64,000 nt of DNA from Vampirovibrio chlorellavorus (GCF_003149375.1 NZ_QFWH01000005.1:14004-78003), one strand, 5' to 3'; shown: positions 796 through 19,862, counted from the stretch's first letter. The notes: generated by a model from the sequence alone, not told the origin. Program-made: numbers and translations.

Positions 796-1326
796 ATGAC
801 AAAGAAGCAAGAGCGTTGGCACGATAAAAAGCCGGATATGGCCAAAGCCATCCATTTTTTAGGCTCATTGCCAAATGAAGTCCAGACCATTATTGGCGAT
901 TGTGTGGTCAAAATCGCGGAAAAAGAATACAAGGTTTCCCAGTTAATGAACAACCTCAAATCGTTGGGCAGCGAAAAAATCCTTGGGCTCCACCAGTCCC
1001 AGAAAAAACGACGTAATTATGACAAAAACCCCGCCACCCACAAGGCGGTCAACCACGTCTATATATTACCCGAGAGTGATCAGGCCAAAATGACAAAGCA
1101 CGTCTTAAACCTGATGGATAGCGTTTTCTCCTACTTTGAAATTCATCAGTCCTTGAACGTGCCGCCAGAAAAAGAGACGCTTCAGAAGCTGGCCGATGCC
1201 TTTACGGAGGGTGGTCCCAAGCAGGCCACTGCGTTCAATAAAGCGCTTCGTCAAAAACTGACCCAAAACGCCAAGCCCGCGGAATATTTAAAGGACTCTC
1301 ACGGCGATTTGATTATTGGGCAGTAA
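796..1326 (+). CDS. hypothetical protein (paralog of the 19105..19722 product)
   Basis: 176 aa ORF. Clear colinear similarity to the 19105..19722 protein, for example MNNLKSLGSEKILGLHQSQKKRRNYDKNP...YILPESDQ aligns with INDLKSLGKDKALALYKSRARRRDYDLDP...MILEPSDQ. No family recognised. Confidence 0.55.
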   Translation: MTKKQERWHDKKPDMAKAIHFLGSLPNEVQTIIGDCVVKIAEKEYKVSQLMNNLKSLGSEKILGLHQSQKKRRNYDKNPATHKAVNHVYILPESDQAKMTKHVLNLMDSVFSYFEIHQSLNVPPEKETLQKLADAFTEGGPKQATAFNKALRQKLTQNAKPAEYLKDSHGDLIIGQ

Positions 1327-1365
1327 GTCACCCTGTCCATTGGATTAAATCACGCTGAAGGTCGC

Positions 1366-2805
1366 TCAGGGTGCGCCTTCTGTCTTGAGCCTGTTTCTCA
1401 CCGCAAGTAAAAACAGGCCCAGTGCCATTAATAATAAATAGGAATTCATCAGCACCATCCAGGACAGGCCGTGCAGGCCCATCAGCTGAAGCCCCAGCCA
1501 GTCCATGCCAATGCGCAGCGCTAACAAAACCACGCCAATCAAAAGCAAGGGGCGAATCAGGTTGAGGTTATAGAAGCAACTGCTCATCAAACGCCAGAGC
1601 GCCGTGTAGGGAACCATCACAATCAGAATCTGATAACACTGCGACACCAGCATTGTATTGTGAGCGGTGAACGCTCCCCGTTCGTACACGACTTTGATCA
1701 ACCAGGGGGCAAACACCACCGAGCCCACAATCAGGGGTAAACTCCACAACAGGATTTGGACACTGGCGCCTTTCAGGATGGCAAGCGCCTTTTCCAGATC
1801 CTGCTCGGAGCAGGCCTGATTCAGGTCTGCCAGTTTGACCATTTGCAAATTGACGACCGTAAGACTTCCCGCGATCAGAACACTTACGTAAGCGTATCGA
1901 AAGGCGCTGGGCTCGCCGGTGGGCAAAAAACTCAAAAAGTAGTTGTCCACCAGGGCCGTCAGTGAGAAAACACCCCAGGTCAGGCTGACCGGTATTATTT
2001 TTTGCAGGAAAGACGCTGACCCTTCCGTGCGCCAAACCCACCGGGGCCGGATTTTCAACCCCACACAGTACATCAACAATTCCACCAGTTGGGAAAGGGG
2101 CAATGCGATTACCAGCCCCATTGGTCCCATCATCTTCAATAAAAGCACAAAGCTGACAATAAATAGCAACAGGCTGGTGATTCGGGGAAGCTGGTAGAGT
2201 GCAAACCGTTTTTCCTGAATGCAGAGTACCCGAAACATTTCAGCCACCTGAAACATAAAGCAGGACGGCAGAACCAGCCAGGTCAGCAGTAGCAGGTGCT
2301 GTAACTTCTCACCGGACCAGCTTGGCGCTATCAGTTGTGCAATGGGTTGATGAAGCAGGCCAATGGCTCCCCCGACAAGCAGGGTAAACAGAATGGTGTA
2401 ATTGAGCAAGACGACTAATAGCCTTTGCGGCGAAAAAGGCGCGTCATGTTGATCTGTCTGAGCTGGCTGGTTGACTGGATGCGCCTGCTTTCGGCTGGAC
2501 TCTGCCGACTCACACTGAGCCACCGCCGGAATCAGCGCGCCGTAGCCCAACTGCTCAAAATAGCTTCTGGTAAATATCAGGATATTATTAACCAGCGTGT
2601 AGGCGTCCATGAATTGAGCCAGCCCCAGAAAGGCCGTCATCACAATTTCTTTTAAAAAAGTCAGCCCTACCACCAGAATCTGCAAGAGAGCGATTTTAGA
2701 GCCGCCCTGCCGGGACAGGGACGCTAACTTTTGCCAGCTACCCGGCGGCAGTTTCCGATAAATTGACGCTTGAAATTGTGTGAAGCGTTTCAGGTGAATA
2801 AGCAT
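1366..2805 (-). CDS. polysaccharide biosynthesis flippase (Wzx-like, MOP/MATE-like superfamily) membrane protein
   Basis: 479 aa, about 12-14 hydrophobic helices along the whole length. First gene position inside a polysaccharide cluster. Typical Wzx size and topology. Confidence 0.55.
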   Translation of the reverse strand: MLIHLKRFTQFQASIYRKLPPGSWQKLASLSRQGGSKIALLQILVVGLTFLKEIVMTAFLGLAQFMDAYTLVNNILIFTRSYFEQLGYGALIPAVAQCESAESSRKQAHPVNQPAQTDQHDAPFSPQRLLVVLLNYTILFTLLVGGAIGLLHQPIAQLIAPSWSGEKLQHLLLLTWLVLPSCFMFQVAEMFRVLCIQEKRFALYQLPRITSLLLFIVSFVLLLKMMGPMGLVIALPLSQLVELLMYCVGLKIRPRWVWRTEGSASFLQKIIPVSLTWGVFSLTALVDNYFLSFLPTGEPSAFRYAYVSVLIAGSLTVVNLQMVKLADLNQACSEQDLEKALAILKGASVQILLWSLPLIVGSVVFAPWLIKVVYERGAFTAHNTMLVSQCYQILIVMVPYTALWRLMSSCFYNLNLIRPLLLIGVVLLALRIGMDWLGLQLMGLHGLSWMVLMNSYLLLMALGLFLLAVRNRLKTEGAP

Positions 2806-2810
2806 GTTCG

Positions 2811-3587
2811 TTAATGACTAGCCGGATGACTGGCAGGGCTGGACGATCTTGAAATCAGTTTTCGGAGTGATCGAAAAAAGTAGACAGCGGTTTGACGCAT
2901 CAGCCAAAGCTCCAGCTTGACGCTCCAATTGGTAATGTACCAGAGATCCGCGTCTGTTTTTTCCTGGATCTGATCCACCGTGGGATTCGGGTTTTTCATT
3001 TGAGCGTAGCCGGTGATTCCGGGCCTGAAAAAGTGCCTGCAACTGTAATTCTGAACATCCTCATCACGGAACCGCTTTACAAAAACAGGACGCTCCGGGC
3101 GTGGGCCTATCAATGACATTTCGCCCAACAGAATATTCCAGAGCTGGGGCAATTCATCCACGTGCGTTTTCCGTAAAAAGCGCCCAATTGCCGTAATTCG
3201 CGCATCTCCCTCCTGCACCCAGGTGGGGCCTGTTTTAGCTTCCGCCTGATCCACCATGGTACGAAACTTGATCAGGGTAAACGGCTTTTCATAAATCGAC
3301 AATCGCTCCTGACGAAATAAGACCGGCCCCGGCGAGGTCAGTTTAATGGCCAGGGCAATCAGCACAAAAAGGGGGGCAAAAAAAACCAGTCCCAGGCTGG
3401 CAAGGATCACATCGAACACGCGCTTGAAACCATACCACCGACGATACTCCACAGAGGGGGTAAACGGCATGTATTCCAGCAAAAAGCGCTCCGAGGCCGC
3501 TTCTGGCTCAGGAAGGGAAGATTGCCTGGGAAATGATGACGGTTCCATCAAAAAAACAAACTCCTCGATTGGCCTTATGCGTTGCAC
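2811..3587 (-). CDS. bacterial sugar transferase (polyprenyl-phosphate glycosyl-1-phosphate transferase, WbaP/WcaJ C-terminal type)
   Basis: FKRVFDVILASLGLVFFAPLFVLIALAIKLTSPGPVLFRQERLSIYEKPFTLIKFRTM matches the bacterial sugar transferase (PF02397-type) signature. True start is probably an internal Met. Confidence 0.75.
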   Translation of the reverse strand: MQRIRPIEEFVFLMEPSSFPRQSSLPEPEAASERFLLEYMPFTPSVEYRRWYGFKRVFDVILASLGLVFFAPLFVLIALAIKLTSPGPVLFRQERLSIYEKPFTLIKFRTMVDQAEAKTGPTWVQEGDARITAIGRFLRKTHVDELPQLWNILLGEMSLIGPRPERPVFVKRFRDEDVQNYSCRHFFRPGITGYAQMKNPNPTVDQIQEKTDADLWYITNWSVKLELWLMRQTAVYFFRSLRKLISRSSSPASHPASH

Positions 3588-4603
3588 GCCTTGTCCGTAT
3601 AGTTCACCAAAGGCTCACCGGCCTGCAAAGTATCCCCGCAGGATCCCTTTTGACACCGGATGTACTCCACCACCTCCGCCAGTCCGTCTTTAAAGGCGAC
3701 GCTCGGGCAAAACCCAAGCAGCGTCCTGGCCTTCTCGATACTGGATAAAGAGTGCCGCAAGTCGCCCCGACGCTCCGGTCGATGCGCCACTTCAAAATTC
3801 TGGAACCCCAGCGCCCTTAAGCATTCAATCAAATCCAGCAGAGAGCGCTTTTGACCGCTTCCGATATTCAGAACCTCAAACGGGTACTGTCCGGTATTCG
3901 CTAGCGCCTTCAGGTTGGCTTGCACCACGTCGGCCACATTGACAAAATCGCGGGTCTGCTTCCCGTTCCCAAACACAGTTAAATTCCGGTTTGAGAGCAA
4001 GTTGCCAATGAATAACGAAATAACGCCCGCATAGTCAGAACTCTGACTCTGCCGGGCTCCGTAAATATTAAAGTACCGCAAGCAGGTCACCTGCATGTGA
4101 TTAAACCTGGAATAAAACTGACCATACTGTTCCCCAACCAGTTTACTGAGCCCGTATTGGGAGGCTGGTTGCGGCAGTAAGCCTTCGTGGCACTCCGGAT
4201 ACTCCACCGGCCCATACACAGCGGCACTGGAGGCAAACACCAGATGCTTGACCCCGGCTTGTCCTGCCGCCTCAAACACGTTGCCCGTCCCCAGAATATT
4301 CACCTCATAAGTACTTTGCGGATCCCGAACCGACTCAGACACGGAGGCAATGGCCGCCTTGTGAAAAATGATATCCTGATCCCGGCAGGCTTGCGTTAAA
4401 GCGGGCATGTCGCGAATATCACCCTGAATGAACTCAACCTTTCCGCCGTGCTGTAGAATGTTATGGCGTTTACCTGTCGATAGATTATCAAACACACTCA
4501 CCCGATGCCCCTCCGACACCAGGGCATCCACCAGATGTGAACCGACAAAACCTGCCCCGCCAGTGACAAGGCAGTTCATACCCGAACGTTCAGACTTCGT
4601 CAT
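3575..4603 (-). CDS. NAD-dependent nucleotide-sugar epimerase/dehydratase (SDR family)
   Basis: N-terminal GGAGFVGSHLV Rossmann motif and catalytic YxxxK (SQYGLSK). About 335 aa, UDP-sugar 4-epimerase-like. Confidence 0.8.
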   Translation of the reverse strand: MTKSERSGMNCLVTGGAGFVGSHLVDALVSEGHRVSVFDNLSTGKRHNILQHGGKVEFIQGDIRDMPALTQACRDQDIIFHKAAIASVSESVRDPQSTYEVNILGTGNVFEAAGQAGVKHLVFASSAAVYGPVEYPECHEGLLPQPASQYGLSKLVGEQYGQFYSRFNHMQVTCLRYFNIYGARQSQSSDYAGVISLFIGNLLSNRNLTVFGNGKQTRDFVNVADVVQANLKALANTGQYPFEVLNIGSGQKRSLLDLIECLRALGFQNFEVAHRPERRGDLRHSLSSIEKARTLLGFCPSVAFKDGLAEVVEYIRCQKGSCGDTLQAGEPLVNYTDKACNA

Positions 4604-4687
4604 ACTTTAACACCCAACAAGCACTTTCTTGACTCTACTTTGGTTCATATCGGCGAGGGCAGGGAAAACTTTAAGCCAATTTCAAAT

Positions 4688-5866
4688 TCAGGACGAATTG
4701 GAGCCCAGCAGATAGGAAGCAAGCGCCTGCAGCTTTTGACTGGCGTCGAAATGACGAGAAACAGAATCGCGGGCGTTCTGGCTCATTGACTGGCAATACG
4801 CCGGATTTTCTATAACCTTCCTCACCAGGGCGGTAGCGCCCTCCACATCGCCATGCTTCACCAGAAATCCGTTGCACCCTGACTCCAGTATTTCACCCAT
4901 CCCGCAAACGTCCGAAGCCAGCACAGGCACACCAGCGGCCATGCTTTCCAAAACCGAGTTGGGACACCCCTCATAATCGGTAAATAAAACCGTGAAATCC
5001 AGATCGCCATAAACTTTGGGCATATCGGCGCAATAACCCGCCATCCCAATGCGATCCGTAAAACCCGAGGCTTGAATCAGGCGCTCCAGATGGGGGCGAT
5101 CCGGGCCTTCCCCGATCAAGACCCCGTAAACGTGCGGAAATTCCCGGCATAAGGCGGTCATCAACTGAATGAAATAATCGTAGCGCTTGCCCGGCACCAA
5201 GCGGCCCACCATGCCAATTTTAAAAGCACCGGGTGGTCGCGCTTCCGCAAAGGGAGCGGTATCGGAGGTTAGAGACGCTGAGCGGTTGGCAAATTCCGCA
5301 ATCGGAATGCCATCGTGAATGGTGTGAATCCGATCCGGGCGACAAATGCCCCCATTCATCATCTGCCGCCGAATATATTCGGACACCGTGATGTAACGGA
5401 CGCCCAGCAGGGCCAACCCTCGATGCATGAGGTAAATCATTTTGAGTGTGCGAGAGCCCGGTGGCGCCCCCTCTCCCCGAATAATGGCAAACCGACCCGG
5501 AACCCTGCACAACCAGCTTGCCACACCACTCAACCCAATCAACTTGACCCCTGAGGCCAGTACCACATCCGGCTTTTCCTTGAGAAAAACCTTGATGATG
5601 AAAAAAAGCACCTGAAGTTCCTGCCAGGGCCGAATAGCCCGATCGATGAGAGGAGAGTAATACGTTTTCACAGGTAAGCCGTTTTGCGCAATCGTCTGTC
5701 CTAGCCAGGTCTTTTCCGCGTTGGAGATCAACACCGTTTGCACACCCTTGGCAACCAGTGCTTCCGCCAACAGAAACGTCTGCTTTGTACCCCCGCCGTA
5801 TAAATGCTCATGGGCCAGCAGGATAACTTTTTGGGCCTTCACTTCGGGCTTCACTCTGGACTTCAC
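4688..5866 (-). CDS. glycosyltransferase family 4 (GT-B, group 1)
   Basis: C-terminal EX7E-type motif ESMAAGVPVLASDVCGMGEIL. About 390 aa GT4 architecture. Confidence 0.75.
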   Translation of the reverse strand: MKSRVKPEVKAQKVILLAHEHLYGGGTKQTFLLAEALVAKGVQTVLISNAEKTWLGQTIAQNGLPVKTYYSPLIDRAIRPWQELQVLFFIIKVFLKEKPDVVLASGVKLIGLSGVASWLCRVPGRFAIIRGEGAPPGSRTLKMIYLMHRGLALLGVRYITVSEYIRRQMMNGGICRPDRIHTIHDGIPIAEFANRSASLTSDTAPFAEARPPGAFKIGMVGRLVPGKRYDYFIQLMTALCREFPHVYGVLIGEGPDRPHLERLIQASGFTDRIGMAGYCADMPKVYGDLDFTVLFTDYEGCPNSVLESMAAGVPVLASDVCGMGEILESGCNGFLVKHGDVEGATALVRKVIENPAYCQSMSQNARDSVSRHFDASQKLQALASYLLGSNSS

Positions 5867-7308
5867 GCTTTTCTCCCTGCCAATAGAAGCGGCAAATCCT
5901 GATCCAGCACAAAGCCTGCCATCAACCAGACATAAGCAGTTTCAATGGGAGAATAGAGCTTGTTATGAAATGCCCCGGTCAGGAAAAACACCAGAAAACC
6001 GGAGCAAGCCATGGCGTAGCGAACATTGTGGGACAATTGTTGCGTGCGCAGCGTCTTGAACAACAAGACAGCGGTTATCAACAGGTAGGGGGTGTAGTAC
6101 AGAACGGTACCGATCAGGCCAAAGACCGATAAGGCACAGGCCAGGGTGTCGTGCAGGTTAAAGTGAGCCAGTTGACGTTCCCGGAACATGCCATACCCAA
6201 ACAAAAATCGGGTAACGGTTTGAAAGCGCGTCACGTTCTCGAGATTGATGCCCGCTTGATAATCCTGAATAATTTTTTCCCGGCTATGGTTGCCCGACTC
6301 AATTTGACCCGGTGTAAACCGATTTCCCAATTCGGGCGTTGCGCACAAAAACAGCGCTAACGGCACTAAAACCAGCAGGCATCCCACCGTAAAATTTTTA
6401 AGCTGCCGCCAGCTTTGAGTCATCAGCAGCGATAAAGCTGCCATCATCACCACCAGACCCAGCGCCACAATGGCAATGCGGGTTTGTGTCATAGCCAAAA
6501 CCACCAGTCCCAGAAGGACGGTGGAAAGCCAGTAGAGCTTCCATTTTCCTTTAGACAAAACCAGCTGGGTGCAAATAAAGGTGAGGAACACCACGATAAA
6601 CGGTCCCAGTCGCGTGGGTAAACGCATAATGGAGGAGACCCGTATCATCCCCCCTGCTTGTATAAACTGGCACACGCCATACAACAGAATGCCATTGAAC
6701 ACCACACTCAGGCACAACAGAAAACGCTTTAAAAATAGGGGATGATTGACGTAAAGATCGTAAAGTAAACAGGGAATATAAATCAGCGGATAGACAATGG
6801 TAAAGCCCAGCAGGGAAGATGCCCCGCCCAACGAGAGCGCCGGAAATCCCGGATCGAATTGCATGCGATTGGTAAGTTGGACGGGTATTTCAACTGAACC
6901 CATGGCGATGGCCGTAAAAAAGTAGATCAGTCCCAGCAGCAGTAAGGGCGCGACCAAAAAACGCAAGCGGGTACTTCGCCAGCGTAGCATCAGATAAATA
7001 CAGTTGGGCAGCGTGGCGGCCATCAGGGCGGGAGCGCATAGCGCCGAAAAAGCGTCTCCAAAAAAAATGAGGAAAGTATAAATCACCAGACACAGTCGAC
7101 TGTTATTCCAGCTTAAAAACCAGAAAAACGGCACCACGGGCAGCATCAGGCCAAGCAAAAGGTGTATTTTGGGAGAGAGGCCAAGGGCGTCAATCAGGAA
7201 AGCGGATTGAAAAAAAGTAGCCCACAGCAACAGGATCACGACAGCGAACATTCCAAACAAAACCAGCGGAAATGCCTGCGTTTGAGTCAGCGAACGGGGA
7301 TGGCTCAT
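5863..7308 (-). CDS. O-antigen ligase / Wzy-like polysaccharide polymerase family membrane protein
   Basis: 481 aa with more than 10 TM helices and a large periplasmic loop near the C-terminal third. Start overlaps the upstream gene end (translational coupling). Assignment by topology and context only. Confidence 0.45.
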   Translation of the reverse strand: MSHPRSLTQTQAFPLVLFGMFAVVILLLWATFFQSAFLIDALGLSPKIHLLLGLMLPVVPFFWFLSWNNSRLCLVIYTFLIFFGDAFSALCAPALMAATLPNCIYLMLRWRSTRLRFLVAPLLLLGLIYFFTAIAMGSVEIPVQLTNRMQFDPGFPALSLGGASSLLGFTIVYPLIYIPCLLYDLYVNHPLFLKRFLLCLSVVFNGILLYGVCQFIQAGGMIRVSSIMRLPTRLGPFIVVFLTFICTQLVLSKGKWKLYWLSTVLLGLVVLAMTQTRIAIVALGLVVMMAALSLLMTQSWRQLKNFTVGCLLVLVPLALFLCATPELGNRFTPGQIESGNHSREKIIQDYQAGINLENVTRFQTVTRFLFGYGMFRERQLAHFNLHDTLACALSVFGLIGTVLYYTPYLLITAVLLFKTLRTQQLSHNVRYAMACSGFLVFFLTGAFHNKLYSPIETAYVWLMAGFVLDQDLPLLLAGRKA

Positions 7309-8660
7309 GGCGTGACTACGTTGGTATTGTCCAGAATGTACTTGATATTGGCCGCGGGCAAGGTGATGGCAGAGGCCGCCCCAAACGTGGATTTAATCCA
7401 GTGCTTCCAGTTTCCTTTGGACACAATCACGGAATCATTGGGAAACAGAATCATATCTTTCCTGGTGGCATCCACTTTTAAAGCCAGCATTTGTTGATTG
7501 GGCAGGGTTCTGGCCACAATAACCTGCCGGGGCTCCGCTTTATCAACATCAAGCCCGGCTTTGGCCAGCACGCTTTGTAAGCTCATCTCGGTAGGGCTTA
7601 ACTGGTACACATCCGGACGCGTTACATAACCGTAGACCCGAATGGGATAGGTCTCCTGCCCCAGATTGCTGTTTGCCAGCAGTTTCAGTACCTCAGGGTG
7701 ATTCCACTGAGCGTTTTCCAGTCGGGGAACGTAGATCACATCTTCCAGCCCCAGGGCAACATCGTTCGCCAATGCCCCGTAAGCCAGTAATTCAACAATG
7801 TTGGCCTCCACGCAAGAGGCGTTATTCAGGTTAAACACCCTTACATGGGCCAAATCCGCATCGGCCAGTAAACCGCCCGCTTTCACCAGGGCTGAACTGA
7901 GGTGGTAATCCAGTCTGGGCGGATTCACGCCAAGCGGTGTGATGGCGGAATTATCCTGCCCATCCAGTAGATACAGTCCGGGTTTTTTTACCGCTCCCAG
8001 AATATAAATGCGCTGCGGGGCAATTTTGTCCAGTGACACCGTCACTGCGGGATGACGCAAGGCGCTTGCGAATCCCTTGGTCAATACCGCAGTCAAACTG
8101 TCTACACTGTGATTGATGGTATTGACCTTACCCAACAAGGGCAAGGCAATGGTGCCATCGGGGGCGATTAAAAGGTTCCGAAGGGAAAATTCCGGATGAC
8201 TCAGCACCTGCAAGGAAATGACATCCCCCGGCTTTAAATGATAGTCCTGCCACTCGGCTTTGGCCACCAAAGGGTGATTCTCTTGATGACTGAGCGAAAC
8301 CGGATGAAAGCCTTTTTCTGGAGATGAGGCCGATGAAGCGGGCTGAGTGCTTTCCAGCGTTGCCTGAGGGTCGGACTTTGCATTTTGAGACAGGAGCTGT
8401 GTCCACCAGACCGAGAAGTCCTTGTCCGTCAGCACCACTGAAGAGGTGCTTTTCAGGGAACTCAGGGAAAGCGGCGCCGGATCTCGCTCCGCTTCCTCCA
8501 ATGAAAAACGGGTAACCGCGGACTCCGCATTCGCCTGCTGATGAGGCCCTTTCGCGGGCTCTGTGGCCATGGCGTTCTGCATGCCGAGCAACACCAGTGC
8601 CCCCCACACAGACAAGGCGGCTAGGGATTTTGGGACATTCTGTTTGAGAATCAACGACAT
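7305..8660 (-). CDS. polysaccharide export protein (Wza-like outer-membrane exporter: Poly_export plus SLBB domains)
   Basis: Signal peptide (ALSVWGALVLLGMQNAMA). The motif YHLKPGDVISLQVL...APDGTIALPLLGKV is a typical Poly_export (PF02563) signature. Confidence 0.7.
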   Translation of the reverse strand: MSLILKQNVPKSLAALSVWGALVLLGMQNAMATEPAKGPHQQANAESAVTRFSLEEAERDPAPLSLSSLKSTSSVVLTDKDFSVWWTQLLSQNAKSDPQATLESTQPASSASSPEKGFHPVSLSHQENHPLVAKAEWQDYHLKPGDVISLQVLSHPEFSLRNLLIAPDGTIALPLLGKVNTINHSVDSLTAVLTKGFASALRHPAVTVSLDKIAPQRIYILGAVKKPGLYLLDGQDNSAITPLGVNPPRLDYHLSSALVKAGGLLADADLAHVRVFNLNNASCVEANIVELLAYGALANDVALGLEDVIYVPRLENAQWNHPEVLKLLANSNLGQETYPIRVYGYVTRPDVYQLSPTEMSLQSVLAKAGLDVDKAEPRQVIVARTLPNQQMLALKVDATRKDMILFPNDSVIVSKGNWKHWIKSTFGAASAITLPAANIKYILDNTNVVTP

Positions 8661-8707
8661 ACGATATTTTCCAGCTCTGTTCAGGAAACGGCTTTTGGGG
8701 GAATTTT

Positions 8708-10777
8708 TTAAGGGAAAACAACGTTCCCGACAATCTGCTCCGGCTGAATCGACGACTCCAGAAACTTCAATTCCCGGACATCGCTGGCGGACTTTGAAAT
8801 CCCCAGAATGACGCCATCAGCGATATCCTCGATCAGGGCAACCCTATTCTGTCGTTCGATTGCCGCAGGCTGACCAGCGACAGGATTGCCACCGGTAGCG
8901 GACATCCACGGGTGCAGGAAAATCAGGTGAAAGCCCTGCTGTGCTTGCAGGTTTTTCAGGAAGCCGGGATCCAGAATATCTTCATCCACAGTTTCAGCGA
9001 GTAACTGGTAAAGATTCTCCTGGGTACAGGAGCGATACAATTCCAGGCGTCCCAGTTTGAGAACCAGTCGCTTATTGCGGAAGGGATTGAAGAGTGCAAA
9101 GCCATCCAGTTCTGCGGCCCGTTGCGTGAAATATAAAACCTTCAGCTCCGGATGCTTAAAGGCGTACAGCCCGCTCAATACACTGGCCAGATTGCCAGGG
9201 TGCCAGAACATCTCGGGCTTTTTACCGGAGCCATCCACATAAATGGGCAAGGCGCAACGAGAGTCCGCATTGTCAAACAGGGAAATAAACAACAGGGTTT
9301 GAATCCCTCGCTTGCGAATCTGAAGGGCGATACCCTGACCAAGGGCCGCAAGCTCCTCATACAAAGTTTCGGTGGTACGGGGCAATCTGCCGGAAAAACT
9401 GCCCAGTGAGAGGCCCGGTCTTTCCAGCAACGGAATACGAGGATCCAGAAATTCAGCGATGGCCACACTGGACAGCGCCAGAACCAGACTGGCCATCCCC
9501 CCCAGTATTAAAGTGGTTTTCAAGGAAATGGGAAATACGGCATCGCCCTGTTCCGGCTCGATGGGTGGCGTCAAAACCACAAAGGCACCCAAATTCAGTA
9601 GGCTGGCTTGCTCCAGTATGGTTTCCTGAATTTTATCCTGTAGCTTTTCCTCTTCGCTTTTCAAGGCGTTCAGAGCCAAGCGCAAGTCATCCATGTCCTT
9701 TTTCTCAAAAGCGACCGCTTTAAAGCCACTATCCAGCTGAGACAAAAAACTCTCGTAATAGGATTTTTGCTGAAGCAGGGCTGCCCGCTGCGTCGTCAGC
9801 TCGATGAGCTGCTTGCCAAACGTAACGTCCAAATCACTGAAGGCCTTGTCCTCTCCCACCAGTGCGGCAGGATGAATGTTCTGGCTGTAACTGGACTGGA
9901 TGCGCTGACCAATCAAACGCTCCAGACGTTGAATCAGATCTTCTTTCTCCAGTACCACCGGATAGCTGTCTGTAAAGGCGGATTTCAGTTTTGCCAGTTC
10001 TCCCTTTTCCATGGCCAGTTGCTTCTGCCAGATTTCCAGCTTGGGATCACTTTTAATACTGACCAGGCGCTGTACCTGTGCGGGAGACAATCCCAATATT
10101 CTTTCCAGGTGTTTGATCTGCTTTTCAGTGGCCAGAATTTCAGCACTGGTAGTGCCCAGCAACTGTGTAAAATTGCTTTTTAACTTAACCAACTCCGAGT
10201 TTTTTAGATCAATATCGGTGGTGCCGCTGGCAGCTTCCACCTGTTTCAGGTTTTCGGCCAACTGGTGACGATTTCTCTGCACTTCTGCCAGTCGCACCTT
10301 CAGGAAGTCGATCCCCTTCAGGCGGGTTTCCTGAGCAATGTGCGCCAACGCCTCCTCGTAAGATTTGAGGGTATGATCCAGCACTTTTTTGGCAAAGTGA
10401 GCCGAAGTATCCTGAAAATACAGATCAATAACCTTGGTAACCTGACTCAGCTCCGTACTCACGTTGCTGTCGGCTCTCAAACGTCTCAGCAACAGGTCCT
10501 GGGCCACGTCCTCCCGCTTGGGAAACTCTTTTCTCAGCCGACTCACCACTTTATCAAGCACCAGATTGGACTTTAAAATCCGGATATGATCCAGGGTGTC
10601 ATCATACTCGTAAGCCTGATACTGGTTTGGAATTTTTCGCTGAATATAAACGCTGGATTTCACCTCATACACGGGGGCGCTCAAAAAGTGAATCAGCACG
10701 ACCGTCAGAAACGAAAAACAGAATATAGCCGTTGCCAGCCAGCGATGGCGCTTTAAGACCAGAAAAATGGAGTCCAT
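8708..10777 (-). CDS. polysaccharide co-polymerase (GumC/Wzc-like chain-length determinant) with degenerate C-terminal kinase-like domain
   Basis: N-terminal TM, long coiled-coil periplasmic region, second TM, then a roughly 250 aa cytoplasmic domain. I found no canonical Walker A (GxxxxGK[ST]) in that domain. Confidence 0.6.
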   Translation of the reverse strand: MDSIFLVLKRHRWLATAIFCFSFLTVVLIHFLSAPVYEVKSSVYIQRKIPNQYQAYEYDDTLDHIRILKSNLVLDKVVSRLRKEFPKREDVAQDLLLRRLRADSNVSTELSQVTKVIDLYFQDTSAHFAKKVLDHTLKSYEEALAHIAQETRLKGIDFLKVRLAEVQRNRHQLAENLKQVEAASGTTDIDLKNSELVKLKSNFTQLLGTTSAEILATEKQIKHLERILGLSPAQVQRLVSIKSDPKLEIWQKQLAMEKGELAKLKSAFTDSYPVVLEKEDLIQRLERLIGQRIQSSYSQNIHPAALVGEDKAFSDLDVTFGKQLIELTTQRAALLQQKSYYESFLSQLDSGFKAVAFEKKDMDDLRLALNALKSEEEKLQDKIQETILEQASLLNLGAFVVLTPPIEPEQGDAVFPISLKTTLILGGMASLVLALSSVAIAEFLDPRIPLLERPGLSLGSFSGRLPRTTETLYEELAALGQGIALQIRKRGIQTLLFISLFDNADSRCALPIYVDGSGKKPEMFWHPGNLASVLSGLYAFKHPELKVLYFTQRAAELDGFALFNPFRNKRLVLKLGRLELYRSCTQENLYQLLAETVDEDILDPGFLKNLQAQQGFHLIFLHPWMSATGGNPVAGQPAAIERQNRVALIEDIADGVILGISKSASDVRELKFLESSIQPEQIVGNVVFP

Positions 10778-11184
10778 GGCTGTCCAGCTCTCCCAAATGA
10801 CCGTTCTTGAACCCTTCGCTTGGGAAAAACGCGCCGTAGCCCCGGCAGGCTAAAGAACGTTGTTCGGTCAATCACCGATCCCAACCGGTCATGTTCATAT
10901 TAGTCTCAAGCCAGGACAGACTTTATCCTTTAAATACAGGAGTTATTGGCGTCCCGCTCACAGTCCCCTGAATGGGGTACAGCCTCGCGAACAACCACCC
11001 AAGCGGGGCCGAATCGGGTAAAAATCCAAACGTTCGAAGATTTATCCTGCCAGTTCATTATTTTCACTTTTCAGCGTTTTAGTTTTTTTTCCAGCCTTTC
11101 AGCCCGAGACTGGAAACTGGCAAACAGTGCCAAAAGCGGGCCAAAACGCGTTTGGCAGGACGTGAATGGCTTAAGCGGGCCTGT

Positions 11185-11490
11185 TTACTTTTTCAGCCGC
11201 TTGTAACCCATATAGCTGGCGGATGACAAAGCGGCAACCGCGACCAGGGCCAGACCCGGCGTTTTTTTGGGGCCATTCCCATTACCATGTCCGTTGGCAT
11301 TTCCGTTTCCATTCCCGGGAGCCGCCTCCGCAGTGAGGGTAACGGCGCTGAGCAACAGGACGGTTACCGTACACAGCAAACCAGCGATTCTGAAAAATTG
11401 ATTCACAGCAATGCCTCTCATACTTATTTTACCCACAGAGAAATAAGAGTCCCTCATTTGAATGTTGATCCATGTTTTTATAAATGTCAA
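11185..11490 (-). CDS. small secreted Gly/Asn-repeat protein with C-terminal TM helix plus basic tail (candidate exosortase substrate)
   Basis: Predicted signal peptide ...LLLSAVTLTAEA, then APGNGNGNANGHGNGNGPKKTPGLALVAVAALSSASYMGYKRLKK ending at the stop. The track ORF starts at a TTG; the real start is probably the internal ATG near 11457 or 11421. Confidence 0.4.
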   Translation of the reverse strand: MTFIKTWINIQMRDSYFSVGKISMRGIAVNQFFRIAGLLCTVTVLLLSAVTLTAEAAPGNGNGNANGHGNGNGPKKTPGLALVAVAALSSASYMGYKRLKK

Positions 11491-11582
11491 TCTTTTTGCA
11501 GGATTTCCGATAAATCTTACCCTGTTCGAACTATTTAAAACGCGCTCATCCCCCTGAGAAGAGCCTCCGGAGCATTTACCCG

Positions 11583-13115
11583 GTGAAAATTTCTGATTTA
11601 CGAAAAAAATTAACTCTGGACGGTTTGTTACTGGCTGTCTTGCTGGTACTTCTCAGTCTGCCCGTGTTGACAAGCTGGCTGGAAACACTCTGGCAACGCC
11701 CGCTGGATCACAATTTAATTCAGCTGGGAGGCGCTATTGTATTGCTGTTTGCCCTCTTGAACAGCTTCAAGCGTGAGGCACTCAAAAAAGCCCTCACCGG
11801 GTCACCCCTTCTGAACACAAGCTGGATAGGCCTGGCTTTGTTAAGCGGGGTTCTTTTGGTGCACGCCCTGTTTGACTTTCTGCATATTAAATCGTTGTAC
11901 TGGATGAGCTATTTGGGAATACTGGCTTTTTCAGGCTGGACATTGCTTGGATTTCAGCGTTTCCTGCACTGTTTGCCGTACTTTCTGTTTTCAGCGTTTC
12001 TGCTGCCCGTGGTCAACGCGGAAATCCACACAGCCATCAGCCTTCCGTTGCAACTGGCTTCAACCTGGCTGGCCACCCAATTTTCCGCCTTGTTTATACC
12101 ACTCACCTACCATCAGAATATGATGTACATTAAGGGAGAAACTTTTGAAATCACCGCTGATTGCAGTGGCCTGCAGAGCTGGGTCGGGTTTATTTTCGCG
12201 GGGCTGCTCAAACATCTTTTTGAAGGGCTTCAAAAGCTGGAATTGGCTTTACTCATCCCCATTTCCCTGATTCTGGCCCTGTTTCTGAATAGTGTAAGGC
12301 TATGCCTGACCGCGCTGGTTGCCTACTTCGCCTCCGCCGATCAGGCGCTGGCCATCCATACCAATCTGGATTATGTGCTGCTACCCCTTGGGTTCTATCT
12401 CATCTGGGAAAGTGGCCATTGGCTCAAAGCCCGGTTCCCGGTCAAAGGGGAAGAACCGAATCCGGACAAAGCGCATCCCGCCTCTTCCGCAAAAAACAGG
12501 CTGATTACCGGAATCACGGCGTGTCTGTTCCTTTGCGTCATCGTGTTTCACTGGGTGGTGAACGTGCCACTGAACCACCCGACGCCAACGACTCTGAGCG
12601 TTCCCCATCATCTGGCAGACTGGCAGGGTTCGGAGCTGGCTCTATCGGAGGCCGAAAAAAAATCGCTGGCAGGGGCGCAAATTATCAATCGGGCCTATCA
12701 CCGCCCCAATCAACGGGTGTTGCTGACCGTGCTGCAAAGTGACTCTCCTGAATATATTCATAACTTTTGGGGATGTTTGGTGGGGCAGGGGCTTCAGCCC
12801 AAACAGGTGGCGCAGTTAAAGCTGACCCTGAATCAGCGGGTTTACGCCATTCCGGTCCTGCAGTATGAGTATGAGGGAAGGCAGTATTACGAAGCGCTCT
12901 GGTACCAGTGGGATAGCGGCATTACGGCCAGTCGGTGGCAATGGTATCAGGCGGTACTGCAATCCCGCTTTGGAAAACCACCCTCTGGCTGGAAGATTGT
13001 CACCGTCACCATGCCCTTACCGCTGCAGAACCCTACAGAATCCCGGCAGGACGATATCAGCATTTTGCAGGACTTTTCCGCGCTGATGCTTAAGACCCTG
13101 AGCCCAAATCCCTGA
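11583..13115 (+). CDS. exosortase family protein fused to EpsI-like C-terminal domain
   Basis: Polytopic N-terminal half with the exosortase-type motif ITADCSGLQS (conserved Cys) and downstream NSVRLCL (Arg). Soluble roughly 190 aa C-terminal domain resembling the exosortase-associated EpsI family. GTG start. Confidence 0.65.
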   Translation: MKISDLRKKLTLDGLLLAVLLVLLSLPVLTSWLETLWQRPLDHNLIQLGGAIVLLFALLNSFKREALKKALTGSPLLNTSWIGLALLSGVLLVHALFDFLHIKSLYWMSYLGILAFSGWTLLGFQRFLHCLPYFLFSAFLLPVVNAEIHTAISLPLQLASTWLATQFSALFIPLTYHQNMMYIKGETFEITADCSGLQSWVGFIFAGLLKHLFEGLQKLELALLIPISLILALFLNSVRLCLTALVAYFASADQALAIHTNLDYVLLPLGFYLIWESGHWLKARFPVKGEEPNPDKAHPASSAKNRLITGITACLFLCVIVFHWVVNVPLNHPTPTTLSVPHHLADWQGSELALSEAEKKSLAGAQIINRAYHRPNQRVLLTVLQSDSPEYIHNFWGCLVGQGLQPKQVAQLKLTLNQRVYAIPVLQYEYEGRQYYEALWYQWDSGITASRWQWYQAVLQSRFGKPPSGWKIVTVTMPLPLQNPTESRQDDISILQDFSALMLKTLSPNP

Positions 13116-14157: not shown

Positions 14158-14757
14158 ATGCTGGATGTTCATTTTTGGGAAAATCGCTACATCACCCAGA
14201 ACACAGGGTGGGATTTGGCGGGCCCTTCTCCGCATTTTGTGGCACTGATCAAGGCGCCACCGGCATTCTTAAAACCGGGCGCTATGGCCGTTTTGGGTGC
14301 CGGGCGTGGTCACGATGCGGCCCTGTTTGGGCAGAACGCCTTTCAGGTTAGCGGCTTCGATTACGCCAGCAGCGCCGTGCAGGAGGCCCGGCAGCGCTAT
14401 GGCCAATGGGCTGATTTTCACCAGAGGGATATTTTTACGCTGGGGCAGGCAGACACCCCCTTTGCCCATCAGTTTGATTATGTGCTGGAGCATACCTGTT
14501 TTTGCGCCATTTTACCCAAACAGCGCCCCGACTACCTGCAAACCGTCACCCGCCTGCTCAAGCCGGAGGGCTATCTGATCGGCATTTTCTGGGAGCATGA
14601 GGAAGCCGATGGGCCACCGTTCAGCACCACGCTGGAGGCGGTTCAAGCTCTTTTTTGCGATAGCTTTGACATTATTTCCGTGGAGGAACGTCAGCCCGCC
14701 AGCAACCGCCGTGGTATCGAACGCCTGATGGTTCTCCGTCGAAAAAAGGAACTTTAG
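14158..14757 (+). CDS. SAM-dependent methyltransferase, thiopurine S-methyltransferase (TPMT) family
   Basis: N-terminal FWENRY...TGWDLAGPSP TPMT-type motif and a glycine-rich SAM loop (VLGAGRGHDA). Confidence 0.7.
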   Translation: MLDVHFWENRYITQNTGWDLAGPSPHFVALIKAPPAFLKPGAMAVLGAGRGHDAALFGQNAFQVSGFDYASSAVQEARQRYGQWADFHQRDIFTLGQADTPFAHQFDYVLEHTCFCAILPKQRPDYLQTVTRLLKPEGYLIGIFWEHEEADGPPFSTTLEAVQALFCDSFDIISVEERQPASNRRGIERLMVLRRKKEL

Positions 14758-14876
14758 AGCGCCCGGTGCGCAAAAGCGGAGAAAGTCCCTACAATAAAAG
14801 GAGTGATCTGGAGTCAGGTTCATTGGCCCTGCCAATTTGGCCTGTTTCCACAAATGCTCTGGGAGTGTCGACCAAA

Positions 14877-15626
14877 ATGTCATTTAAGCAAGCAAGTCAA
14901 AAGCGCCACGTATACCTTCTGGCCCTTTTTACCCTTTTTGTCAGTGCCAGTTTGAGCGGTTGTGAACTTCTGGAAAAACTGCCCTTCCTGCCCAAAGGAC
15001 AACCTGCCTCTCAAAGCGCAGACGGATCGTCCAGTTCCGAGCCGGGCAAGGCGGATGCAAAGTTCATCAAAAGCCATCTGGACGCGGGCAACAGCAAGGC
15101 CAAAGCCGGTGACTGGGCCGGAGCCACTGAAGAATTCAAGACCGTTCTGGCCGCGGACGCCCGCAACGTTCAGGGCCATGTGCAAATTGGCTGGGCCTAT
15201 GCCGAGCAGAAGATGTGGGACGAGGCCCAAAGCCATCTCATCAGCGCTGTAGCCCTGGAGCCGGGCAATGCCGGAGCCCATGCCAATCTGGCCTGGGTCT
15301 ACGCGGAAAAGAAGCGCTGGTCAGACGCTCAGGAGCAGGCCAAGCGGGCTATTGATCTGGATCCCAAAAACCCTTACCCGCACGCTACCCTGGCTTGGGC
15401 GTATCAATCCTCCAACCAGCACGATTTAGCCATTGCTGAATATGAAAAATCACTGGAACTCAACCCGAATCTGGACAACTCCCGGGTGGCATTGGGCATT
15501 GAATACTGCAATCAGGGTAACTTGCCCCGGGCCAAAGCCCAGCTTGAGAAATTAAAAAGTCTGGGGTCACCCAAGGCCAGCGAGGTAGAGGCCCGCATCA
15601 GCAAGGGGTGTGCCCGAAAGCCCTGA
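14877..15626 (+). CDS. tetratricopeptide-repeat lipoprotein
   Basis: Lipobox LSGC after a hydrophobic signal. Repeated W..A..Y......A/AI..DP.N TPR-like units. Start taken at the ATG at 14877 (the ORF track extends upstream to 14766). Confidence 0.6.
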   Translation: MSFKQASQKRHVYLLALFTLFVSASLSGCELLEKLPFLPKGQPASQSADGSSSSEPGKADAKFIKSHLDAGNSKAKAGDWAGATEEFKTVLAADARNVQGHVQIGWAYAEQKMWDEAQSHLISAVALEPGNAGAHANLAWVYAEKKRWSDAQEQAKRAIDLDPKNPYPHATLAWAYQSSNQHDLAIAEYEKSLELNPNLDNSRVALGIEYCNQGNLPRAKAQLEKLKSLGSPKASEVEARISKGCARKP

Positions 15627-16848: not shown

Positions 16849-16923
16849 TGGTGGGCGCAGTAGGACTTGAACCTACGACTTCCACCGTGTGAAGGTGGCA
16901 CTCTACCGCTGAGTTATGCGCCC
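16849..16923 (-). tRNA. tRNA-Val (anticodon CAC)
   Basis: Reverse complement folds as a cloverleaf: acceptor GGGCGCA/TGCGCCC, D-stem ACTC/GAGT, anticodon stem CCACC/GGTGG with loop TTCACAC, T-stem GTAGG/CCTAC, loop TTCAAGT, encoded CCA. Confidence 0.85.
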
Positions 16924-17815: not shown

Positions 17816-18898
17816 TTACTCCGCGATGGATTTGCCAGCGGATTTCAAGTCCCGGAACGCCTCATCCAAACGGGCAATAACGCCCTCTTCCCCTGTGCGC
17901 AGCCACTTGCGGGGATCGTAGGCTTTCTTGTAAGGGGTATGGGTGTCCGGGTCAATCTGATACTGAAACGCTTTGGGGTTGGCCATCACGTACTTGCCCA
18001 CTTCATGGGCAAAGGCGAACTGCAAGTCGGTATCAATATTCATTTTGAACACCCCGTAGTTCAGGGTTTCCTCAATTTTGGCCTGTTCCGACCCGGAACC
18101 ACCGTGAAACACCAAGTTCAAAGGATTGGGCCCGGTTTTGTGCGTGGATTCCACCAGAGCCTGCGAATTTTTCAGGATTTCCGGGCGCAGTTTGACGTTG
18201 CCGGGTGCGTAAACCCCATGCACGTTCCCGAAAGAAGCGGCGATGGAGAAGAACCCGAGGGGCGACAAACGCTCGTAGGCTTGCAGCACATCTTGCGGCT
18301 GGGTGTAGAGGTTGGGATTATCCAAGTCGTCATGCTCAGAGCCAATGCCGTCCTCTTCGCCACCGGTAATGCCCAGTTCAATTTCGATGCTCATATCAAT
18401 GGCCGCCGCCCGCTTTAAAATCCGGGCGGATTCCGACAGGTTGAACTCCAGCGTCTCTTCGGACAAATCCAGCATGTGAGAGGTGAACAGGGGGCGTCCG
18501 GTTTGTTGATAGTGGGCTTCCCCGTGGGTTAGCAGGGCTTCCACCCAGGGAATCAGCTTTTTATTGGCGTGATCGGTATGCAGGACCACACAAACCCCGT
18601 AGTGTTGGGCCATCAGGTGAACATGCTGAGCCGCGGAGACCGCCCCCAGGACTTTGGCCTGAAAGGAGTCCGGGAAGCCTTTACCGGCGTAGAACTCCGC
18701 CCCGCCGTTGGACAGCTGGATGATGACATCGGATTTATTTTTCCGGGCCGCCTCCAGCACAGCGTTAATGCTGTTGGTTCCTACCACGTTGACGGCAGGC
18801 AGAATGTATTTTCCAGCCTTACAGGCCTCTACCAGGGTCTGATAATCCTTTCCGGAAACCACGCCCGGCTTTAGCTTGGCTTGAGTGGCAATGCTCAT
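17816..18898 (-). CDS. fba: fructose-bisphosphate aldolase, class II
   Basis: 360 aa. Class II FBA-type TIM-barrel sequence with conserved His/Asp-rich metal-site segments (LHTDH, FHGGSG). Confidence 0.85.
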   Translation of the reverse strand: MSIATQAKLKPGVVSGKDYQTLVEACKAGKYILPAVNVVGTNSINAVLEAARKNKSDVIIQLSNGGAEFYAGKGFPDSFQAKVLGAVSAAQHVHLMAQHYGVCVVLHTDHANKKLIPWVEALLTHGEAHYQQTGRPLFTSHMLDLSEETLEFNLSESARILKRAAAIDMSIEIELGITGGEEDGIGSEHDDLDNPNLYTQPQDVLQAYERLSPLGFFSIAASFGNVHGVYAPGNVKLRPEILKNSQALVESTHKTGPNPLNLVFHGGSGSEQAKIEETLNYGVFKMNIDTDLQFAFAHEVGKYVMANPKAFQYQIDPDTHTPYKKAYDPRKWLRTGEEGVIARLDEAFRDLKSAGKSIAE

Positions 18899-19104
18899 GT
18901 CAAAATCCTCTGATCAACATCATGACGGTCATTGGATTATTTTCTTACAAAAGCCGCCATTGTCACCCCGCCAAGTGTCGTAAATCCGGATTCTCACTGA
19001 CCAGTCCTCTTTCCGGCCAGTCCTCTCTCCCTCCTTCCGATCCGCGAACACCGCAGTCGGCCCGTCTCTTCACAGGCTCGTGCTCCAGAAGTAAAGGGGG
19101 GCGG

Positions 19105-19722
19105 CTAATTTTCCAGGCAAATGCGCATGCCGGTATCCTGATCGGTGATGGCCTCCGTGGCATACGGGCTGGCTGTTTTGTCCCCAAATCCTGCCTGCGT
19201 CGCCCGGGAGGTGGGTTGTGGGGTGGCCGGGGGCGTCTTTTTCATGCCGGAAAAGTATTTATGGAATTTCCCGTGGATGATTGAAAGCAAATCCTGAGCC
19301 TCGTGCAATCCGCCCTGCACGTAGGTTCCGGTCAATCGTTCCACGATGGTTAGCTGGATTTTTTGCGAGTAGACCTGGCATAAGTCCATAAACTCTCGCA
19401 CCACCCGGATCATATCGTTCACTTTCACGGCCAGAAAAAACTGATCCGAAGGCTCCAGAATCATTAAATAGTTCATCGCTTTGGACAGGTACGGGTCCAG
19501 ATCATAGTCACGGCGTCTGGCCCGGGACTTATACAGGGCCAAAGCCTTGTCCTTGCCCAGACTTTTTAGGTCGTTAATGCGAATGTGGGCATTGAAGTCA
19601 CTTTCAGCGATTGAACACATCCCCTTGGCCAGAATCGAGCGGATATCCCCGGAAAACCCGAATAGAGAAGTCACGGCCTCTTTGACCGTGGGGTTTTTCT
19701 CGTAAAAACGAACATGGGTCAT
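19105..19722 (-). CDS. hypothetical protein (paralog of the 796..1326 product)
   Basis: 205 aa. Colinear similarity to the 796..1326 product over about 110 aa (LKSLG...RRRDYDLDP...ILEPSDQ) with a divergent C-terminal tail. Confidence 0.55.
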   Translation of the reverse strand: MTHVRFYEKNPTVKEAVTSLFGFSGDIRSILAKGMCSIAESDFNAHIRINDLKSLGKDKALALYKSRARRRDYDLDPYLSKAMNYLMILEPSDQFFLAVKVNDMIRVVREFMDLCQVYSQKIQLTIVERLTGTYVQGGLHEAQDLLSIIHGKFHKYFSGMKKTPPATPQPTSRATQAGFGDKTASPYATEAITDQDTGMRICLEN

Positions 19723-19782
19723 CTTGCTCTAAGATTCCATCGTTCAGGGGAACACGACAATCAACGGTGTCAACAGCAAAAT

Positions 19783-19862
19783 CGGGTAGGAAAGTTCTGG
19801 TTAGGAAAGCTCTGACGATAGAGAAGTCTGACGGTAGAGACGTGCTAAATCGTAGGGAAGTA
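19783..19862. repeat. five tandem degenerate 15-16 bp direct repeats with (G/T)TAG(G/A)RAAG core
   Basis: GTAGGAAAGTTCTG / GTTAGGAAAGCTCTG / ACGATAGAGAAGTCTG / ACGGTAGAGACGTGC / ...CGTAGGGAAG, located in the promoter region of 19105..19722. Confidence 0.5.

Follow-up and report, generated by a model that had tools for sequence, protein, structure and literature searches.

The window, a 64-kb stretch of DNA whose source genome is Vampirovibrio chlorellavorus, contains two genes for hypothetical proteins. Both were found where a preliminary description of this DNA had placed them:

796..1326, + strand: ORF A, 176 aa, subfamily-A member of an orphan family
19105..19722, - strand: ORF B, 205 aa, subfamily-B member of the same family

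A 'hypothetical protein [Vampirovibrio chlorellavorus]' matches ORF B at 100% identity. BLASTP aligned ORF A with ORF B without gaps over 138 aa (28% identity, 58% positives, E=1e-23), and the family HMM picked out just these two proteins in a six-frame translation of the window (6e-63 and 4e-61), which bears out the proposed homology. The core motifs quoted for the pair, LKSLG, RRR(N/D)YD and ILPESDQ/ILEPSDQ, were also recovered and are where the family is most strongly conserved. Together, the sequence comparisons indicate that ORF A and ORF B are true paralogs.

Among 1.84 billion representatives, a profile search returned 492 cluster representatives at E<=1e-3, of which 143 reached E<=1e-30. 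Almost all of the 492 have lengths of 160-250 aa, and all the named ones among them are from Vampirovibrio, Vampirovibrionales or Melainabacteria; a protein at the weak end of the listed matches (P0188) comes from a Melainabacteria MAG. A genome scan, which used the narrower alignment A4 and is thus biased to members with the (E/D)K(V/I)LALYKS motif, gave 12 loci carrying the family, all 12 of the same origin with one label excepted. This exception is a Coleofasciculaceae-labelled contig, on which the neighbouring gene is one common to Vampirovibrionales contigs. A third word-indexed homolog search, with profile A3, mostly returned the same proteins again.

HMM searches of Pfam, NCBIfam, PHROGs and PADLOC gave no match to the family. 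The best Pfam/NCBIfam scores were 13 bits against cut-offs of 22-27, below the curated thresholds, and no known family recurred in Pfam searches of ten distant members or of all 83 members of alignment A3. The PDB contains no significant match by sequence or fold, and BFVD no fold match for either paralog. No relative was found in the viral contigs searched, and PHROGs, BFVD, IMG/VR and PADLOC gave no HMM, fold or locus match that would point to a phage or defence origin. Two earlier statements, that the proteins could not be assigned to any known family and that they seem lineage specific, agree with the searches. By its sequences, this appears to be a protein family not described before and confined to Vampirovibrionales, which are non-photosynthetic Melainabacteria.

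Both subfamilies are present in at least four genomes. Orthologs are 77-92% identical, compared with 25-28% for paralogs; the range for ORF A orthologs is 51-92%. ORF A orthologs always lie between a gene for a 326-334-aa hypothetical protein and a convergent MurJ-like/Bac_transf/epimerase/GT cluster. In subfamily B, L001-L003, L005 and L023 keep the order TauE - B - class II fructose-bisphosphate aldolase, and all-against-all BLAST of neighbouring ORFs grouped L011 and L012 with these loci. A third subfamily adjoins a convergent MBL-fold gene. Across the 25 loci compared in this way, no universal neighbour or conserved operon partner emerged, only subfamily-specific neighbourhoods. The family genes stand alone in varied housekeeping contexts. 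The separate neighbourhood and the separate conserved upstream element of each subfamily indicate that the A/B duplication is old.

The upstream regions of the two genes contain the following features:

702-708 and 721-727, + strand: palindrome CTATCGG-N12-CCGATAG, upstream of ORF A
732..759, + strand: candidate ORF A promoter TTTTCA-N16-TATGCT, with TG at 751-752 as extended -10
19783..19848, - strand: genome-specific 66-bp insertion, a 66-column gap in relatives (alignment A5)
19784..19864, - strand: whole imperfect repeat array of five units (families D1, D2 and D3, and core count)
about 19850-19864, - strand: putative single ancestral repeat copy, part of the five-unit array
19860..19901, - strand: subfamily-B conserved upstream element, GGGTGTTTAGAAAT-N-GTCCATTTGTATTAGTAC, candidate promoter or operator

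Upstream of ORF A, positions 732..759 are a candidate promoter by conservation, and the orthologous loci show a matching layout (TTTCCA-N16-TATGCT in L008 and TTTTAA-N16-TATGAT in L009). The site is absent from the list of the consensus scan. The palindrome was present as described earlier. Its left arm is missing in L008 and L009, and the right-arm region, beside the -35, is partly kept; as a unit, the palindrome is probably not functional. It was also considered as an intrinsic terminator (7-bp stem, 12-nt loop, tail AGGAUUUUC) and rejected: the terminator-like sites listed for 500-1500 do not include it, and it is not conserved in L008/L009. RNA folding of 650-795 was no better than that of shuffles (z=-0.13), the region upstream of ORF B was less stable than shuffles (z=+1.70), and Rfam found two tRNAs only in the window and no known structured RNA in either upstream region. 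Rfam, folding and the terminator scan all argue against a structured-RNA or terminator reading of the two regions. A sigma-54 promoter reading was dropped because the spacing is wrong.

The subfamily-B element is near-identical in four genomes of the V. chlorellavorus group. It recurs as GGGTTTAG(A/T)-N~14-(C)CAT(A/T)(A/T)G, at -84 to -116, in L004, L005, L006, L013 and L014. A scan for the sigma-70 consensus lists no promoter at 19860..19901, so we infer the role of the element from conservation only and regard it as a candidate promoter or operator. A TTGACA at about 19766-19771 was considered as the -35 of ORF B; this reading was abandoned because L011 and L012 have TTAATA there and no -10 follows.

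Five tandem repeats had been described upstream of ORF B, and five TAGRRAMG cores were indeed detected, at + strand positions 19787, 19802, 19819, 19835 and 19853. The whole window contains 12 such cores on both strands, 5 of them in this array, and the repeat units themselves occur nowhere else in it. A repeat search recovered the array as 15-16-nt families D1 and D2, with D3 also located in it. The units, which read TAGRRAMG on the + strand and are CU-rich on the sense strand of ORF B, are imperfect and differ in length (14-22 nt). Tandem Repeats Finder made no call for the array, the units being too dissimilar (about 60-88% alike).

Alignment with related loci (A5) showed a clean 66-column gap in L023 (91% protein identity), L012 (81%) and L011 (83%), with conserved flanking intergenic DNA. 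The corresponding 66-bp insertion contains four of the array's five repeat units of ~15-16 nt, and its ends can be placed only to within one such unit. It is located between the subfamily-B upstream element and the ORF B start codon, downstream of that element and probably in the 5' leader. Parsimony across the four genomes indicates that the 66 bp were gained rather than lost, and the five repeats would have arisen by local tandem expansion of one ancestral copy.

The preliminary description had seen GATAGAG/GTAGGAAAG-type repeats upstream of both genes and had proposed that a factor reading this motif co-regulates the paralogs. The five TAGRRAMG cores clustered upstream of ORF B and the word CGATAGAG, found in both upstream regions, speak for this proposal. 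However, what precedes ORF A is a single GATAGAG word inside the 7-bp palindrome, and the palindrome's left arm is not kept in ORF A orthologs. CGATAGAG is the only word common to both regions and occurs at the level expected by chance from shuffles; the regions have 3 seven-mers in common versus 3.9 expected, and CGATAGAG lies in opposite orientations relative to ORF A and ORF B. The three closest available genomes lack four of the five units although the flanking DNA is conserved, and the 15-16 nt period of the units is out of step with helical phasing. Subfamilies A and B also differ from each other in their conserved upstream elements. Failure of the motif to recur at other paralogs had been named beforehand as refuting the proposal, and in 23 loci no homolog has an upstream cluster. 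Since the repeats are neither conserved at orthologous promoters nor recurrent at homologs, they do not behave as an operator- or iteron-type array. Co-regulation through shared upstream repeats is thus very improbable and was not upheld. Stand-alone genes with upstream elements conserved only within the subfamily indicate that ORF A and ORF B are independent loci and not a repeat-coupled regulon.

The expansion might still matter in this strain, as a new operator array or as a leader of variable length that adjusts how strongly ORF B is expressed, in the manner of a contingency locus. Its position, with the conserved element on one side and the start codon of a gene that is itself conserved on the other, is consistent with such a role, as are the CU-rich sense-strand units, which, read from the sequence, resemble an anti-Shine-Dalgarno sequence. 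We nevertheless consider a function unlikely. The units are diverged (60-88% alike), unlike the perfect short repeats of phase-variable loci, the RNA structure is not unusual (z=+1.7, weaker than shuffles), and the expansion is known from one genome only.

AlphaFold (AF2) predicted the same eight-helix domain, with the same helix order, in both paralogs (pLDDT 82 and 85, pTM 0.71 and 0.75). The structure prediction and comparison that had been suggested for the pair thus gave one common domain, with no match among PDB/BFVD folds. The models contain these segments:

ORF B residues 11-161: eight-helix domain
ORF B residues about 162-195: disordered P/T-rich linker, with the disordered stretch of the model at 169-195
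ORF A residues 164-175: C-terminal beta-hairpin

The C-terminal hairpin is predicted at low confidence (pLDDT 55-58). The tails had been described as different. This holds for their composition, K/Q-rich in A and P/T-rich in B, but not for relatedness, because both proteins end in a homologous C-terminal motif (EAITDQDTGMRICLEN in ORF B, EYLKDSHGDLIIGQ in ORF A). This motif was overlooked in the first reading of the sequence. Family-wide it reads E-x-I-x5-G-M-R-I-R and is conserved across subfamilies; ORF A's own version, GDLIIGQ, has no Arg. The linker before it is disordered and variable in length and composition. The most conserved segment of the domain, (K/R)SLGxEKvLaLyKSkxKRRxYDxNPxxHKAMNYL, is positively charged (net charge +4 to +6). 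With pI values of 9.4 (ORF A) and 8.9 (ORF B) and no hydrophobic stretch in either, the family proteins are small, basic, soluble and cytoplasmic.

Our best guess for the function is a putative cytoplasmic binding or adaptor protein. The helical domain would bind a partner, nucleic acid or protein, via its conserved basic face, and the tethered C-terminal peptide may dock either to another partner or back onto its own domain. A protein of this design would work as a small regulator or adaptor and not as an enzyme; this assignment draws on size, charge, architecture and lack of operon partners only. Pfam searches of the 83 members revealed no HTH or other DNA-binding signature. The helix-hairpin-helix pattern, h-x-x-h-x-G-h-G-x-x-x-A-x-x-h, consists of two helices joined by a Gly hairpin. 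The LKSLGxEKvLaLY segment has a helix-Gly-helix layout in the models (H52-55, G56, H57-66) but lacks the G-h-G hairpin, and helix-hairpin-helix Pfam models gave no match among the 83 members.

One alternative weighed is that the family binds a metal or a cofactor, for example as a sensor or as a small protein with a redox or storage role; conserved aromatic, His and Cys residues in the helical bundle would form the site. Most members have Y, Y/H/F, H, Y, Y and C at positions 7, 64, 80, 85, 111 and 115, and in subfamily A these change jointly to H, H, H, H/C, Y and H, that is, to nearly all His. Cys-to-His exchange is typical of metal ligands, and R5, R71 and D74, invariant in the family, are also there. 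However, Vampirovibrio members of subfamily B have Ser or Thr in place of H80, so there is no universal ligand set, and no metalloprotein family or fold matched. We therefore regard this alternative as doubtful, though it is the least improbable of the rivals considered. An HEPN-type RNase (R-x(4-6)-H) was rejected, given that R71 and H80 are eight residues apart and that H80 is Ser/Thr in subfamily B.

Secreted effectors of the predatory lifestyle, exported for example by VirB/D4-type secretion with the disordered tail and the Arg-containing C-terminus as the signal, would fit the restriction of the family to Vampirovibrionales and the disordered linker followed by the conserved G-M-R-I-R motif; a T4SS (VirB/D4-type) has reportedly been described in the V. 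chlorellavorus genome paper. Yet the C-terminal motif is a defined short sequence and not merely a charged tail, and its ORF A version lacks Arg. In addition, the genes lie amid housekeeping genes in conserved neighbourhoods with no secretion genes nearby, and fast-evolving effectors would not be expected to show conservation of up to 92% together with 2-3 ancient paralogs. This explanation is highly unlikely. The boldest version of the regulator/adaptor proposal, a new Vampirovibrionales-only fold acting as a hub, with paralogs wired to different processes, docking through the C-terminal G-M-R-I-R motif and a link to predation, would be a long shot. Such a hub would combine 2-3 ancient paralogs, a conserved docking partner and a tie to the epibiotic predatory lifestyle. 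One example of its wiring would be subfamily A to the adjacent exopolysaccharide/exosortase cluster.

Overall, we think it somewhat better than an even bet that ORF A and ORF B are ancient paralogs of a Vampirovibrionales-only family with a helical regulator/adaptor role, and that the repeats are a genome-specific insertion. This is an ordinary lineage-specific orphan family, one of many such uncharacterised families, beside an ordinary indel. The regulatory story that gave the finding its appeal was not sustained, and the lesson is to check short upstream repeats against sister genomes before calling operators. If followed up, the proteins would provide a new Pfam family (about 500 clusters at 50% identity) as a marker of Vampirovibrionales, and a confident predicted fold without a solved analogue. 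They could also open a way into the biology of a lineage that is harmful to Chlorella cultures and is the only predatory one described among cyanobacteria.

Among known systems, the cyanobacterial KGK domain (PF08872) gave sub-threshold matches in 2 of the 83 members, including ORF A residues 35-73. With best E-values of 0.007-0.14 and 13 bits against a 25.6-bit cut-off, these matches are inconsistent across the family and were treated as chance. The ORF B array resembles VNTR/contingency-locus indels in the strain-specific copy number of a short unit between an upstream element and a start codon, but its units are imperfect, of 14-22 nt, and escape a Tandem Repeats Finder call. The protein has the same layout as SSB with its tip and FtsZ with its C-terminal peptide, namely a folded domain, a variable low-complexity linker and a short terminal motif. 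This resemblance is architectural only, with no relationship in sequence or fold, and to our knowledge E-x-I-x5-G-M-R-I-R does not resemble DDDIPF or the C-terminal peptide of FtsZ. Finally, the family is like small all-alpha bacterial regulators, such as TetR-like and Rsd/AlgQ-like anti-sigma proteins, in being 160-200 aa in size, all-helical, soluble and basic, and in being encoded by stand-alone genes with their own promoters.

Vampirovibrio chlorellavorus is a predatory, non-photosynthetic member of the Melainabacteria. Both hypothetical genes named in the preliminary description are present in the window:

796..1326, + strand: ORF A, 176 aa, subfamily A
19105..19722, - strand: ORF B, 205 aa, subfamily B

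BLASTP aligned the two proteins without gaps over 138 residues (28% identity, 58% positives, E=1e-23), and a family HMM run against the whole window, translated in six frames, matched these two alone. Thus, ORF A and ORF B are genuine paralogs, and the preliminary description of them was largely right. Public databases already list the sequences as 'hypothetical protein' entries; ORF B is 100% identical to P0001, 'hypothetical protein [Vampirovibrio chlorellavorus]'.

AlphaFold2 models of ORF A (pLDDT 85, pTM 0.75) and ORF B (pLDDT 82, pTM 0.71) showed eight helices in identical order. The helices of ORF B are followed by a disordered stretch (residues 169-195), and a low-confidence beta-hairpin (164-175) forms the end of ORF A. 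A 190-sequence family alignment showed R71 and D74 to be invariant and R5 and G56 almost invariant. Conservation was highest in the block (K/R)SLGxEKvLaLyKSkxKRRxYDxNPxxHKAMNYL, whose net charge is +4 to +6 in the two proteins. With pI values of 9.4 and 8.9, both proteins are basic, and neither contains a hydrophobic segment. A C-terminal motif, E-x-I-x5-G-M-R-I-(R/K), is also conserved and follows a linker of varying length and composition. The ORF B version is EAITDQDTGMRICLEN and the ORF A version EYLKDSHGDLIIGQ. The tails do differ, as had been noticed, but this shared motif had been overlooked.

A word-indexed protein search returned 31 homologs for ORF B and 9 for ORF A, all 138-231 aa long and none with a Pfam domain. 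We built a family profile from both homolog sets and searched 1.84 billion cluster representatives. At E<=1e-3 it returned 492 proteins, of which 143 reached E<=1e-30; almost all had 160-250 aa and aligned over their full length. Neither ORF was recognized by Pfam or NCBIfam; Pfam searches with 10 distant members and, after these, the full 83 of a broad alignment did not recognize the family either. PHROGs and PADLOC gave no match, the PDB none by sequence or by profile, and IMG/VR viral contigs no relative. Foldseek found no real match to the fold in the PDB (best E about 1) or in BFVD. The family is undescribed, with no detectable relative or fold analogue in the libraries searched (Pfam, NCBIfam, PHROGs, PADLOC, PDB, BFVD, and IMG/VR).

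Named sources of family members were Vampirovibrio chlorellavorus, Vampirovibrio sp., Vampirovibrionales bacterium, and Candidatus Melainabacteria bacterium. The one exception was locus L015, labelled Coleofasciculaceae cyanobacterium:

DATNPJ010000033.1, 158-kb MAG contig: family member with a downstream MBL-fold gene

This label is doubtful because the MBL-fold neighbour is common to L015 and the Vampirovibrionales contigs L007/L017 and L018. Mis-binning or mislabelling of the contig is more probable than occurrence of the family in oxygenic cyanobacteria. These sources, together with the lack of recognition by the reference libraries, support the earlier view of a lineage-specific family.

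Orthologs of ORF A and ORF B share 77-92% identity within the V. chlorellavorus group and the paralogs about 25-28%, and at least four genomes contain both subfamilies. The 18-kb spacing is not a conserved feature: strain NCIMB 11383 has the two genes on separate contigs, with ORF A >100 kb from either end of its own. Subfamily A genes always lie between a gene for a 326-334-aa hypothetical protein and a convergent MurJ-like/Bac_transf/epimerase/glycosyltransferase cluster, an arrangement kept down to 58% identity (loci L008-L010). Besides ORF A, positions 2-13115 of the window contain the following:

2..649, + strand: C-terminal 215 aa of the 326-334-aa hypothetical protein, running off the window start; 87% identical to the L008 ortholog, no Pfam or NCBIfam match
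1366..10777, - strand: Wzx/Wzy-type exopolysaccharide cluster, convergent with ORF A; MurJ-like flippase, Bac_transf sugar transferase, epimerase, GT4 glycosyltransferase, 689-aa Wzz-like protein
5863..7308, - strand: in this cluster, 481-aa polytopic protein, possibly Wzy or ligase-like; no Pfam match
7305..8660, - strand: in this cluster, Poly_export+SLBB protein
11185..11490, - strand: 101-aa ORF adjoining and divergent from the exosortase gene
11583..13115, + strand: exosortase with fused EpsI-like domain (PF09721 Exosortase_EpsH, E=2e-23; PF11984 DUF3485)

The best NCBIfam match of the exosortase was exosortase W, far below its cut-off. In the 101-aa ORF, the N-terminus resembles a signal peptide, a GNGNGNANGHGNGNG repeat is present, and the C-terminus has a hydrophobic helix with a KRLKK tail; the ORF lacks a PEP motif and matched no family. 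It could be a candidate sorting-signal substrate.

Subfamily B genes lie between a TauE-family gene and a class II fructose-bisphosphate aldolase gene in L001-L003, L005, and L023. In L004, the gene lies between TauE and a GH8/Poly_export/Wzz/Wzy cluster; an exopolysaccharide export cluster thus adjoins a subfamily B gene as well, a putative association or a coincidence. A third subfamily adjoins the convergent MBL-fold gene (L007/L017, L015, and L018); L018 and the B-type locus L013 belong to one and the same MAG. More distant members lie amid unrelated housekeeping genes. No neighbour common to all loci was found, and every family member looks like a stand-alone gene.

Two further features were seen around subfamily B. 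A TPMT-like methyltransferase gene followed by a TPR protein gene lies about 4 kb from ORF B (14158..15626), and such a pair (L026, 5301..6799) adjoins P0188, a distant member of the family from a Melainabacteria MAG, which hints at very old synteny. A phage-type integrase gene (HTH_17 + Phage_integrase) is located about 2 kb downstream of the B-aldolase pair in L005 (7609..8841) and L023 (5299..6030), after a conserved 88-94-aa ORF. A tRNA gene of the window (16852..16923, - strand) lies in the corresponding direction. The region beyond the B-aldolase pair may be an integration hotspot.

The preliminary description proposed co-regulation of the paralogs through shared upstream repeats. Upstream of ORF B, five TAGRRAMG cores are indeed present (19787-19853). 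Their 15-16-nt units were recovered by a repeat search of the window; TRF made no call because the units are imperfect. We aligned it with the corresponding DNA of the closest available genomes, which were L023, L012 (Vc_AZ_2), and L011 (NCIMB 11383), with 91, 81, and 83% protein identity. All three showed a clean 66-column gap over ~19783-19848, which removes four of the five units from otherwise highly conserved intergenic DNA. Since the relatives retain one copy, the array represents a local, genome-specific tandem expansion. The core occurs only 12 times in the whole window on both strands, and units elsewhere in it did not exceed chance. Nor did the core cluster upstream of homologs in 23 loci.

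A different element is conserved upstream of subfamily B genes:

19860-19901: GGGTTTAG(A/T)-N~14-(C)CAT(A/T)(A/T)G...TA(A/G)TAC, distinct from the repeats

Five further species-level loci also have it, between -84 and -116 relative to the start codon. The 66-bp insertion separates this element from the ORF B start codon, which would place the repeats in the 5' leader if the element serves as the promoter. A sigma-70 consensus scan called no promoter at 19860-19901, and the leader RNA folds less stably than shuffled sequences (z=+1.7). A function of the repeats is unlikely, and an ordinary strain-specific indel is the best-supported reading of the array.

The palindrome CTATCGG-N12-CCGATAG does occur upstream of ORF A (702-727). 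Three results argue against its being functional: its left arm is unconserved in L008 and L009, it is not terminator-like, and its region gives no better folding than shuffled sequence (z=-0.13). A conserved TTTTCA-N16-TATGCT with a TG extension (732-759) is, judged by its conservation, a candidate ORF A promoter. The sole word common to both upstream regions is CGATAGAG, in opposite orientations relative to the two genes; three 7-mers are shared, versus 3.9 in shuffles. Rfam detected two tRNAs and nothing else in the whole window. The absence of four of the five units in the three relatives, the lack of clustering, and the chance-level 7-mer sharing refute the proposed co-regulation by the standard that the preliminary description had itself laid down.

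The best-supported interpretation places ORF A and ORF B, as anciently diverged paralogs, in an orphan family that is restricted to the Vampirovibrionales and consists of small, basic, helical proteins whose C-terminal motif is tethered. We favour a putative cytoplasmic binding or adaptor (regulator-like) role on account of protein size and charge, the domain-linker-peptide arrangement, the occurrence as stand-alone genes whose upstream elements are conserved, and the absence of any enzyme signature. A metal or cofactor site made up of covarying Tyr/His/Cys positions is the main rival. Positions 7, 64, 80, 85, 111, and 115 (ORF B numbering) are Y, Y/H/F, H, Y, Y, and C in most members and switch jointly to H, H, H, H/C, Y, and H in subfamily A; they may form a ligand or metal site. 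A role as secreted effectors is unlikely. Nothing in ORF A or ORF B indicates a new kind of system, and lineage-specific orphan families such as this one are common.
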